Assembly (NCBI GenBank): GCA_018698675.1
Contig: JABIPA010000059.1
Location: forward strand, 15,784-79,783
Reading direction: 5' to 3'
DNA: 64,000 nt
Source of the DNA: a bacterium
GTDB taxonomy: Bacteria > Margulisbacteria > Marinamargulisbacteria > JABIPA01
Shown piece by piece: positions 12,004 through 13,233 of this stretch (positions within the stretch are counted from its first letter, which is position 1; each line of letters begins with the position of its first letter). Both the position numbers and the translations under genes were made by a program. Below the pieces are notes generated by a model, which had not been told where the DNA came from, ran no database searches, and worked only from the letters and a program-made list of their open reading frames with translations.

Positions 12004-13233
12004 TTAAAGGCCTGTCTTTTTCAGAAGCAACTTCTCCAAAAGAGGTTGATGAGCATGCCCACATAGTATAACCATATTTTCTTTCCTATTTTCGGTTATC
12101 GATAAAATATTTTTAACCCATATTTCTGTTCTTTGTTTTAGCGCATATTTTTGCTTAAATTCTTCAAAAGAAGAAGGATCCATCGCATTGTTGTAGAATT
12201 CTTTTAACTCGTGTTTTTCATTAACTGAAAATAAAGAAGTTTCTGCCAAAATGGATTCAAACAAAGCCTTTGTTATTATATTTCGCTCTTTTGGAGGGAA
12301 TTTTATTAAATATTTCGTCAATGTTTCCGTTCCCAAGCTAATACCCTCTATAAGAAACGTTTTTATGTACATAGGAATTGACTCAATATTATTGTCAAAG
12401 GCTCTCTTTATTGGAGACTCTTCCCTACATAGCTCTCCAGCAACCGCACACGCATGGTTCGCTAACAAATAATCAAATTTATCCACTTTACTCGTATCTA
12501 TTGGCAAGTAAATTTGCATGTCAGAATGATGCTTCAAAGACCGAAGATACGTTAAACTAAATAATGTTTCGTCTTCCAATCCATAAAGACATTGTTTTCC
12601 ATTAATAGTGGCTACGCCACGCTCTTCACCGAATGTAGAAATTTCTGCAGCACGAACTCTGGGAGTACCTTCCAATCCAACTACAAACCCCGCTCCATTA
12701 ACAGATAACTTAATAATAGCATCGTCCACAAACGTGGACATTGGATCCCCATGAGACCCTGCAATAACAGCAACTCGAGAGCTTGAAAAAATAGTTCTTA
12801 AATGTTGATGAATACCGCCTCGAAATTGATAGACGTCTATACCATTTAAAGGCAGCCCAAAACCTTTAAATGAAAACGTCCCCAATTTATCAAAAATATT
12901 CGTTTTTAATTTTTTCAATATATCCGTTATTTCCGAACGATTATATTTCCGAGCAAGAGAAGCAGGTGTTTCTTTTGTTATCGTTTGCTCATTTGGATCT
13001 AAACCATGGCATACCAATATTTCAAAAACGTTTGAATGTCCTCTTTCGGCAGCATAATGCAATGCTGAATAACCAGATGTCTTTGATCTCGCCTCTATAA
13101 TCTTAGGGTTTGCATCAATCATATCTTGGGCCGTTTGATTATCATCTTTCATGATAGCCGTTAAAAAAGATTTCCTTTCGATATCCGAAAAAGAAGGTTG
13201 TGAAAAAGTTGCAATTATTTTTTGAAGTCTCAT
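12004..13233 (-). CDS. ankyrin-repeat protein fused to TIKI/TraB/GumN-like domain
   Basis: The N-terminus carries ankyrin repeats ('SALHYAAERGHSNVFEILVCHGLDPNE'). The C-terminal half has two His motifs resembling the TIKI/TraB family, 'RVAVIAGSHGDP' and 'MVILCGHAHQPLL'. Confidence 0.5.
   Translation of the reverse strand: MRLQKIIATFSQPSFSDIERKSFLTAIMKDDNQTAQDMIDANPKIIEARSKTSGYSALHYAAERGHSNVFEILVCHGLDPNEQTITKETPASLARKYNRSEITDILKKLKTNIFDKLGTFSFKGFGLPLNGIDVYQFRGGIHQHLRTIFSSSRVAVIAGSHGDPMSTFVDDAIIKLSVNGAGFVVGLEGTPRVRAAEISTFGEERGVATINGKQCLYGLEDETLFSLTYLRSLKHHSDMQIYLPIDTSKVDKFDYLLANHACAVAGELCREESPIKRAFDNNIESIPMYIKTFLIEGISLGTETLTKYLIKFPPKERNIITKALFESILAETSLFSVNEKHELKEFYNNAMDPSSFEEFKQKYALKQRTEIWVKNILSITENRKENMVILCGHAHQPLLEKLLLKKTGL

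Follow-up and report, generated by a model that had tools for sequence, protein, structure and literature searches.

What kind of domain follows the ankyrin repeats in the protein encoded at positions 12004-13233 (minus strand) of a 64,000-nucleotide stretch of bacterial DNA, and what could such a fusion protein do? This stretch, analysed at its full length and denoted the window below, spans positions 15,784 to 79,783 of contig JABIPA010000059.1 (assembly GCA_018698675.1; Marinamargulisbacteria, JABIPA01). An interpretation made from the letters alone (hereafter, the sequence-only reading) had proposed that the ankyrin repeats are fused to a TIKI/TraB/GumN-like domain and that the protein is a candidate eukaryote-like effector, ankyrin repeats being classic host-targeting modules of amoeba-associated bacteria. 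The motif and profile comparisons described below suggest, with a probability that we put at about 0.55-0.6, that the C-terminal domain is a very divergent member of the TIKI superfamily, probably Ere-like in its N-terminal half and TraB-like in its C-terminal half; it is a member of neither the TraB/GumN nor the Ere family proper. The best explanation of the gene as a whole, namely, an accessory gene for a divergent TIKI-superfamily hydrolase recruited to its target by ankyrin repeats, would have a probability of 0.55. The parts of the gene to which the argument refers are as follows (window coordinates; HMM, hidden Markov model).

12004..13233, minus strand: complete open reading frame (ORF) of 409 amino acids (aa) plus stop, with an ankyrin module and, C-terminal to it, an orphan domain (ORF call)
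12889..13176, minus strand: ankyrin-repeat module, residues ~20-115 (Pfam Ank models and phmmer against PDB)
12007..12888, minus strand: C-terminal domain, residues 116-409, a putative, highly divergent TIKI/TraB/Ere-superfamily hydrolase domain (no homologues; four-block model)
12742..12774, minus strand: motif 1, VAVIAGSHGDP, residues 154-164, a hydrophobic strand and then His161 as a putative catalytic residue, codon 12751-12753 (Ere-derived model)
12667..12696, minus strand: motif 2, GAGFVVGLEG, residues 180-189, a strand that terminates in Glu188, likewise a putative catalytic residue, codon 12670-12672 (27 residues past His161)
12103..12138, minus strand: motif 3, KQRTEIWVKNIL, residues 366-377, a helix with Arg368 and Trp372 that matches the family pattern R[ND]xx[WM] (TraB HMM and hhalign)
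12043..12078, minus strand: motif 4, NMVILCGHAHQP, residues 386-397, the final strand plus G392-x-x-H395, H395 codon 12049-12051 (C-terminal sub-HMMs of TraB and Ere)

The gene itself is real. The ORF opens with ATG and runs for 409 codons to a stop codon at 12004-12006; at 36% GC, such a length, combined with significant domain matches, is far beyond chance. An identical 409-aa protein is encoded on 9 metagenome contigs from several independent metagenomes, which excludes an assembly artefact, and the gene copies that could be read (n=4) are nucleotide-identical throughout. A 3.9-kb contig (L002, ENA ERZ23491495) differs from the window by 12 mismatches and one gap, none of which falls within the 1230-bp gene.

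The ankyrin repeats, as proposed in the sequence-only reading, are borne out by curated thresholds and known structures. Ank_2 matches residues ~26-109 with 33.3 bits (cut-off 27.3; E 7e-8), and the Pfam gathering scores are also passed by Ank (26.6 against 21.1), Ank_4 (26.8 against 22.7) and Ank_3 (24.3 against 22.3), whereas the weak NCBIfam matches (18 bits against an equivalog cut-off of 500) are limited to the ankyrin part, as are all matches in PHROGs and PADLOC. In the PDB, phmmer aligns the same residues, ~26-109, to ankyrin-1 and to DARPins. By inspection, a canonical repeat at residues 54-86 is framed by degenerate N- and C-capping repeats. The 409-aa protein contains neither a signal peptide nor a transmembrane segment.

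The two His-containing motifs on which the proposed kinship with TIKI/TraB was based are indeed present, AVIAGSHGDP at residues 155-164 and VILCGHAHQP at residues 388-397. The TIKI superfamily, which includes TIKI, TraB/PrgY, Ere/Bcr135, ChaN, RRSP, PMT C1/C2 and HopBA1, shares a parallel beta-sheet core; the active enzymes hydrolyse esters or peptides by means of water that is activated by a His-Glu pair on adjacent strands, and RRSP employs a 2His/2Glu arrangement (E3900, H3902, E3930 and H4030), with the His and Glu 28 residues apart both in RRSP (H3902/E3930) and in Bcr135 (H85/E113) (PMC6254334). Within the Ere and TraB families, the catalytic elements occur at near-fixed spacing. These regularities were captured in position-specific models of four blocks, one for each of the strands that carry the first His and the Glu, one for the R-x3-[MW] helix and one for the last strand together with the second His, which were derived solely from family sequences and constrained by the family spacing ranges. 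The combined Ere+TraB model recovers H161, E188, R368 and H395 jointly, with 17.8 bits, a score that was reached by none of the 474 natural proteins of at least 250 aa (maximum 14.0) and none of 3000 shuffled sequences (maximum 8.5, z 5.4). With the Ere-only model, the top His/Glu site in the whole protein is H161/E188 (8-9 bits), although the Ere C-terminal block scores poorly on this protein, and the TraB-only model finds R368/H395 (14.5 bits for the block that covers these elements, CD, and 14.3 when constrained). Under the single-family models, the protein scores at least as high as most genuine members of the other family, which served as positive controls.

The spacings between these elements compare as follows.

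First His to Glu: 28 throughout Ere, 26 throughout TraB, 27 in this protein (H161 to E188)
Glu to Arg: 170-188 in Ere, 161-182 in TraB, 180 in this protein (E188 to R368)
Arg to second His: 27-32 in Ere, 23-27 in TraB, 27 in this protein (R368 to H395)
Second His to C-terminus: 128-219 in Ere, 13-31 in TraB, 14 in this protein

The domain thus combines a His-Glu pair at the ~26-28-residue distance expected for the superfamily with a late second His, in a comparison designed after the protein had been read.

Family-derived profiles point to the same C-terminal region. Because the HMMER speed filters conceal matches with a per-model P above about 1e-5, these filters were turned off. The TraB set combined E. 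coli YbaP with eight plasmid-encoded TraB/GumN proteins, the most distant at 24% identity; the Ere set (n=10) included EreA, EreB and EreD along with members from Bacillus, Streptomyces, Ralstonia and others (an EreB sequence that served only as bait proved 100% identical to a real ere(B)). The TraB HMM, trained on 10 genuine members, aligns to the R368...H395 segment with 5.2 bits (P 6e-4), a score reached by 1 of 5000 shuffles and by none of 70 natural ORFs. The C-terminal sub-HMM of TraB gives P 2e-4 (7 of 5000 shuffles reach the score) and that of Ere gives P 0.002 (0 of 778 natural segments). A comparison with the TraB alignment by hhalign selects the same 31 C-terminal columns as the TraB HMM, and both methods align Arg368 to the invariant TraB Arg. 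Altogether, four profiles, Pfam DUF5694, the TraB HMM, the Ere HMM and hhalign, meet on this region. A genuine TraB protein from Lysinibacillus cross-matches the Pfam ChaN and Ere models via the same region, which indicates that this is where the superfamily signal survives. The Pfam Ere model begins beyond the first His motif and is therefore blind to the N-terminal motif of the protein analysed here. A simple regular-expression pattern of the motifs was also tried and dropped, being post hoc in design and failing to match even YbaP.

Comparison with the known families shows how the two halves of the domain appear to differ in their affinities. The best likeness to the TraB/PrgY/GumN family (PF01963; E. 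coli YbaP, eukaryotic TIKI1/2 and TRABD) is in the C-terminal half, where an R-x-x-x-W helix, a hydrophobic strand and G-x-x-H are followed by ~14 residues to the end of the protein; the equivalents in YbaP are R228, W232, G249 and H252, with 13 residues to the end. As in TraB, the first His motif lacks a Glu, and the overall His1-Glu-Arg-His2 geometry agrees. Among the invariant residues of the 9-member TraB alignment (in YbaP numbering, L36, G38, H41, E67, A148, E159, Q164, R228, V248, G249 and H252), R228, G249 and H252 correspond to R368, G392 and H395 according to both HMMER and hhalign, and H161 and E188 are plausible counterparts of H41 and E67, although the TraB model does not choose them; the counterparts of A148, E159 and Q164 are uncertain, and A148, Q164 and the GKPxxGLE...Q motif are at best doubtful in this protein. 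In place of the TraB G[ST]xH, the first motif reads AGSH, and a fusion to ankyrin repeats is absent from every TraB-family member examined. The best likeness to the Ere family (PF05139; EreA/B/D, Bacillus Bcr135/136), conversely, is in the N-terminal half: a strand-x-x-S-H element is followed by GF at +21/+22 and by Glu at +27, compared with GF at +21/+22 and Glu at +28 in Ere. The Arg/Lys to Met/Trp step at +4 and a double-His element (AHNAH in Ere, GHAH here) are shared as well. Unlike Ere, the protein has neither the Glu of GExxH nor the ~130-220-residue extension past the last His, and it does not match PF05139; its GHAH also departs from the last Ere motif, [AG]HNxH.

Several observations weigh against the assignment of the domain to the TIKI superfamily. 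The search against the PF01963-type profile, by which the sequence-only reading was to be checked, gave no match even at E 10 (the gathering score of PF01963 is 26.8 bits), nor was there a match at E up to 10 to PF04187 (ChaN) or PF05139. The sole Pfam match of the domain is to DUF5694 (PF18950), between residues 336-403 and profile positions 96-170 of 185, with E 0.05-0.06 and 14.1-14.3 bits (~P 2e-6 per model), below the cut-off of 27.5 bits; a link between DUF5694 and the TIKI superfamily is itself unconfirmed, as real TraB and Ere proteins do not cross-match this model, and a literature search found no paper that mentions DUF5694. The hhalign comparison with the TraB alignment has a probability of 2.3% and P 0.02, and the N-terminal counterparts of the sub-HMMs fall short of significance (TraB, P 0.13; Ere, P 0.05). 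The block model built from TraB alone passes over H161/E188, and motif 1, AGSH, lacks the Glu of the Ere hhhGExxH and is one residue shorter than the TraB hhhG[ST]xH (h, hydrophobic residue). The block boundaries and the design of the test were chosen after the target had been read, so that the control statistics are optimistic. AlphaFold2, run without an alignment, yields a pLDDT (predicted local distance difference test) of 34.1 for the full-length protein and 34.6 for the domain alone, and so gives no structural support for the alpha/beta fold of the superfamily, with its helix-flanked core of five parallel beta-strands; these low-confidence models are due to the fact that no homologue alignment exists. 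Neither homologues by which to judge how far the proposed catalytic residues are conserved nor polymorphism among the copies for a selection test were found, and no result indicates a substrate. The original claim is accordingly narrowed to the level of the superfamily, at which the combined motif score surpasses all controls and the claim is probably right; its more specific part, a domain of the TraB/GumN type, is given up, with no standard profile reaching significance.

A rival possibility, which we consider rather unlikely, is that the domain is an unrelated orphan with a novel or fast-evolved fold, possibly helical-rich and non-enzymatic, in which the likeness to the TIKI motifs arose by chance. 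The protein would then be no more than an ankyrin adaptor that carries an uncharacterised domain peculiar to its lineage. Homologues were sought with residues 112-409 alone, to keep ankyrin matches from flooding the results. A word-indexed search of 5.8 billion clusters retrieved only the protein itself; an exhaustive phmmer scan of 1.84 billion representatives retrieved the protein itself and one spurious match, a 4650-aa ricin-lectin repeat protein in which a single 50-residue stretch was counted five times; phmmer against PDB gave no match; and tblastn against plasmids and phages gave nothing meaningful. In all, the domain has no detectable relative in about 15 billion public proteins, and neither the window nor the sister loci encode a paralogue or a second ankyrin protein. 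The sub-threshold standard profiles, the non-significant N-terminal tests, the lack of a confident AlphaFold fold and the post hoc origin of the block test all fit this possibility, and so does the abundance of orphan domains in the lineage. Large ORFs (386-919 aa) without any Pfam match occur in the window at 2435-4573, 24863-27622, 43798-45456, 61407-63458, 31650-32810 and 52840-54243, consistent with a deep-branching, poorly sampled lineage, in which an orphan is less remarkable than it would be in a well-studied phylum. Chance resemblance, however, does not readily account for the convergence of four independent profiles on one C-terminal region, for a spacing-constrained model that joins all four elements and beats every control, or for inter-motif and C-terminal distances that all fall within the family ranges.

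The motifs could also be taken for those of another hydrolase fold, which we consider highly improbable. AGSHG fits the [AG]xSxG elbow of alpha/beta hydrolases, and VILCGHAHQP resembles both the C-terminal GH of these enzymes and the GHTHxP (GHxH) motif of metallophosphoesterases. Nevertheless, none of the many alpha/beta-hydrolase and Metallophos models of Pfam matches at E up to 10. Inspection finds no acidic residue ~28-35 residues before the His, as needed for the alpha/beta-hydrolase triad, and no suitably placed GDxxD or GNH[DE] of a metallophosphoesterase; moreover, GHAH lies 14 residues from the C-terminus, whereas true metallophosphoesterases continue with further strands. The Glu strand and the R-x3-W helix are explained only if the domain belongs to the TIKI superfamily.

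Under the TIKI assignment, the protein would be a soluble two-module protein, in which the three-repeat ankyrin module (residues ~20-115) serves as a protein-binding adaptor, and residues ~116-409 represent an extremely divergent member of the TIKI/TraB-PrgY-GumN/erythromycin-esterase/ChaN superfamily, whose fold they would share. The putative active site would consist of His161, Glu188, the Arg368-x3-Trp372 helix and His395 in the final strand-G-x-x-H element, with His393 also nearby. By analogy with characterized members, the most likely scenario is that the ankyrin module recruits a target protein in which the putative hydrolase cuts a peptide or ester bond; in the superfamily, it is water activated by the His-Glu pair that attacks the carbonyl of an ester or peptide. 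Appended domains of superfamily proteins recruit the substrate, and the N-terminal targeting module of RRSP is required for such recruitment (PMC6254334). A TIKI core joined to a separate targeting module is, indeed, what the protein would share with RRSP, Pasteurella PMT C1/C2 and Pseudomonas syringae HopBA1. No sequence similarity to these proteins was detected by phmmer against PDB, and targeting of the RRSP type involves a membrane-localisation helical bundle, whereas here the module is ankyrin, in a locus devoid of toxin or secretion context.

If the assignment is correct, this is the most divergent TIKI-superfamily domain among those compared, an intermediate with an Ere-like N-terminal and a TraB-like C-terminal half, fused to an ankyrin targeting module, and a further case of the RRSP pattern, in which a separate module brings the substrate to the TIKI core. 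The immediate value of a single orphan gene that comes with no homologues, structure or substrate is limited; it would mainly serve to test methods for remote homology and orphan folds, and it is a candidate for expression and structural work.

Could the target of such a hydrolase be a host protein? Ankyrin repeats are enriched in host-associated bacteria. A secreted effector, whose ankyrin module binds a eukaryotic protein that the TIKI-like domain then cleaves or de-esterifies, would resemble RRSP or HopBA1, and TIKI-fold domains do occur in toxins and effectors such as RRSP, PMT and HopBA1 (PMC6254334). The gene is accessory and strain-variable, as might be expected of an effector gene. The Dot/Icm effectors AnkG, AnkH and AnkY of Legionella, too, combine an ankyrin module with a lineage-specific, hard-to-annotate domain; unlike these, the present protein comes from an organism that is no Legionella-type pathogen, and neither a Dot/Icm system nor a translocation signal is in evidence for it. 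Judging from DnaE, this organism is a deep relative of Margulisbacteria: a single sister metagenome-assembled genome (MAG) shows 91% identity and the next matches only 55-60%, those with names being Candidatus Margulisiibacteriota or Marinamargulisbacteria. One member of Marinamargulisbacteria, Ca. Ruthmannia eludens, lives inside the cells of Trichoplax (PMC6784892). A further DnaE relative (P0202, 53% identity) comes from a eukaryotic single-cell assembly of EukProt (COSAG01), which may point to a physical association between protists and some relatives of this lineage.

Against a host-directed role stands the distance (DnaE 55-60%) of this organism, which is not a known amoeba associate, from the named, mostly pelagic Marinamargulisbacteria. 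The 64-kb window contains no visible secretion-system genes and no other ankyrin or eukaryote-like protein, the protein itself has no signal peptide or transmembrane segment, and the adjoining genes are defence-like rather than virulence genes. Nothing in the window lends support to secretion or to life in association with amoebae, and the effector claim of the sequence-only reading is not upheld. A secreted host-directed effector in general appears unlikely, and quite unlikely is the more specific variant in which the ankyrin module delivers a divergent TIKI protease/esterase fold of the RRSP/HopBA1 kind onto a eukaryotic target of a host or prey. Were the latter true, the lineage would stand out as host-associated and the known effector architectures would gain a new one; in a phylum known almost only from sequence, with one member inside animal cells, an ankyrin-guided hydrolase could indicate host interaction.

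The genomic context offers another perspective on the role of the gene. The relevant neighbours, all in the window, are as follows.

13234..13323, minus strand: upstream intergenic region of 90 bp, containing a weak promoter-like site and, ~12 nt ahead of the start codon, the ribosome-binding site AAGGA
13324-16146, minus strand: 940-aa SF1 helicase, the upstream neighbour (PADLOC MkoC, Mokosh type II, E 2e-268)
17520-19796, minus strand: AAA_13/PADLOC PDC-S06 ATPase (E 2.5e-202; also phrog_2801)
19906-19983, minus strand: tRNA-Asp, beside the AAA_13/PDC-S06 gene
10712-11905, minus strand: 397-aa protein with no family match, downstream of the ankyrin gene
7845-9149, minus strand: 434-aa lineage-specific orphan between the SelO and alpha/beta hydrolase genes (no match in Pfam, NCBIfam, PADLOC or PHROGs)

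Moving upstream from the ankyrin gene, the order is helicase, SirB, a 173-aa ORF, the AAA_13/PDC-S06 ATPase and tRNA-Asp; downstream, the 397-aa orphan is followed by SelO. In the sister genome (GCA_018699495.1), the order is SirB-YccF-AAA_14-helicase-397aa-SelO-hydrolase, and the ankyrin gene is missing: the stop codon of the helicase gene (71% identity) lies 77 bp from the 397-aa gene, whose promoter and ribosome-binding region are conserved in both genomes. The gene is thus a clean single-gene cassette (the 90-bp upstream region plus the ORF), present in one genome and absent from the other. The cassette has no flanking repeats and no terminator, and its GC content and that of third codon positions (GC3) are native-like; given the lack of repeats, terminator and compositional anomaly, nothing points to a mobile element or to recent foreign origin. 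A lineage-specific single-gene cassette in a gene-content-variable, tRNA-Asp-flanked region suggests an accessory, conflict-related role, whether the opponent is a host, prey or phage, rather than a housekeeping one.

Phage would be the opponent if the protein were a component or effector of anti-phage defence, whether it partners the adjacent Mokosh-like helicase or acts independently within a defence island, a role that we consider distinctly improbable. The strong MkoC and PDC-S06/AAA_13 matches of the neighbours, the flanking tRNA-Asp, the variation of gene content between the sister genomes and a match of the ankyrin part to the candidate defence protein PDC-M72A (E 2.6e-6) would all accord with such a role, but this last match, like those in PHROGs, is of ankyrin to ankyrin only. 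In the sister genome, furthermore, the helicase directly adjoins the 397-aa gene with no ankyrin gene between them, a distant homologue of the helicase in Thiosymbion has unrelated neighbours, and the contrast between more than 2000 helicase homologues and none for the C-terminal domain implies that the two are not conserved partners. On the basis of synteny in the sister genome and around the Thiosymbion homologue, the protein is rejected as a Mokosh partner of the MkoC-like helicase. Beyond the host-directed and defence readings, we assign no biological role to the protein.

Other features of the locus concern the neighbours themselves. The helicase matches the MkoC profile up to position ~965 of 1136 and contains no PLD nuclease domain by Pfam; its homologues (>2000, typically ~1010 aa) consist of helicase domains only, so that it may belong to a family of PLD-less Mokosh-like helicases. 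The 397-aa protein could be the true partner of this helicase. On contig L002, the helicase is called as two shorter ORFs of 217 and 225 aa (positions 2-1500). With the AAA_13/PDC-S06 ATPase, the helicase and tRNA-Asp, the 12-20 kb stretch resembles a tRNA-flanked defence island. Upstream of the helicase, the sister genome instead carries the genes for YccF and an AAA_14/DUF4143 ATPase, and it lacks the 434-aa orphan gene, SelO and the hydrolase being 83 bp apart there (L005 8142-8225); such differences in gene content at 91% DnaE identity indicate fast gene turnover in the region. The window is otherwise ordinary chromosome, with DnaE, GatAB, MnmE, a SpoIIE phosphatase, glycosyltransferases and a ZnuA/ABC-3/DtxR cluster. 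The latter, a metal-uptake cluster at 28663-34659 (minus strand), encodes a DtxR-like repressor with a FeoA domain, a ZnuA-type binding protein, an ABC ATPase, two ABC-3 permeases and a 386-aa ORF that carries no annotation.

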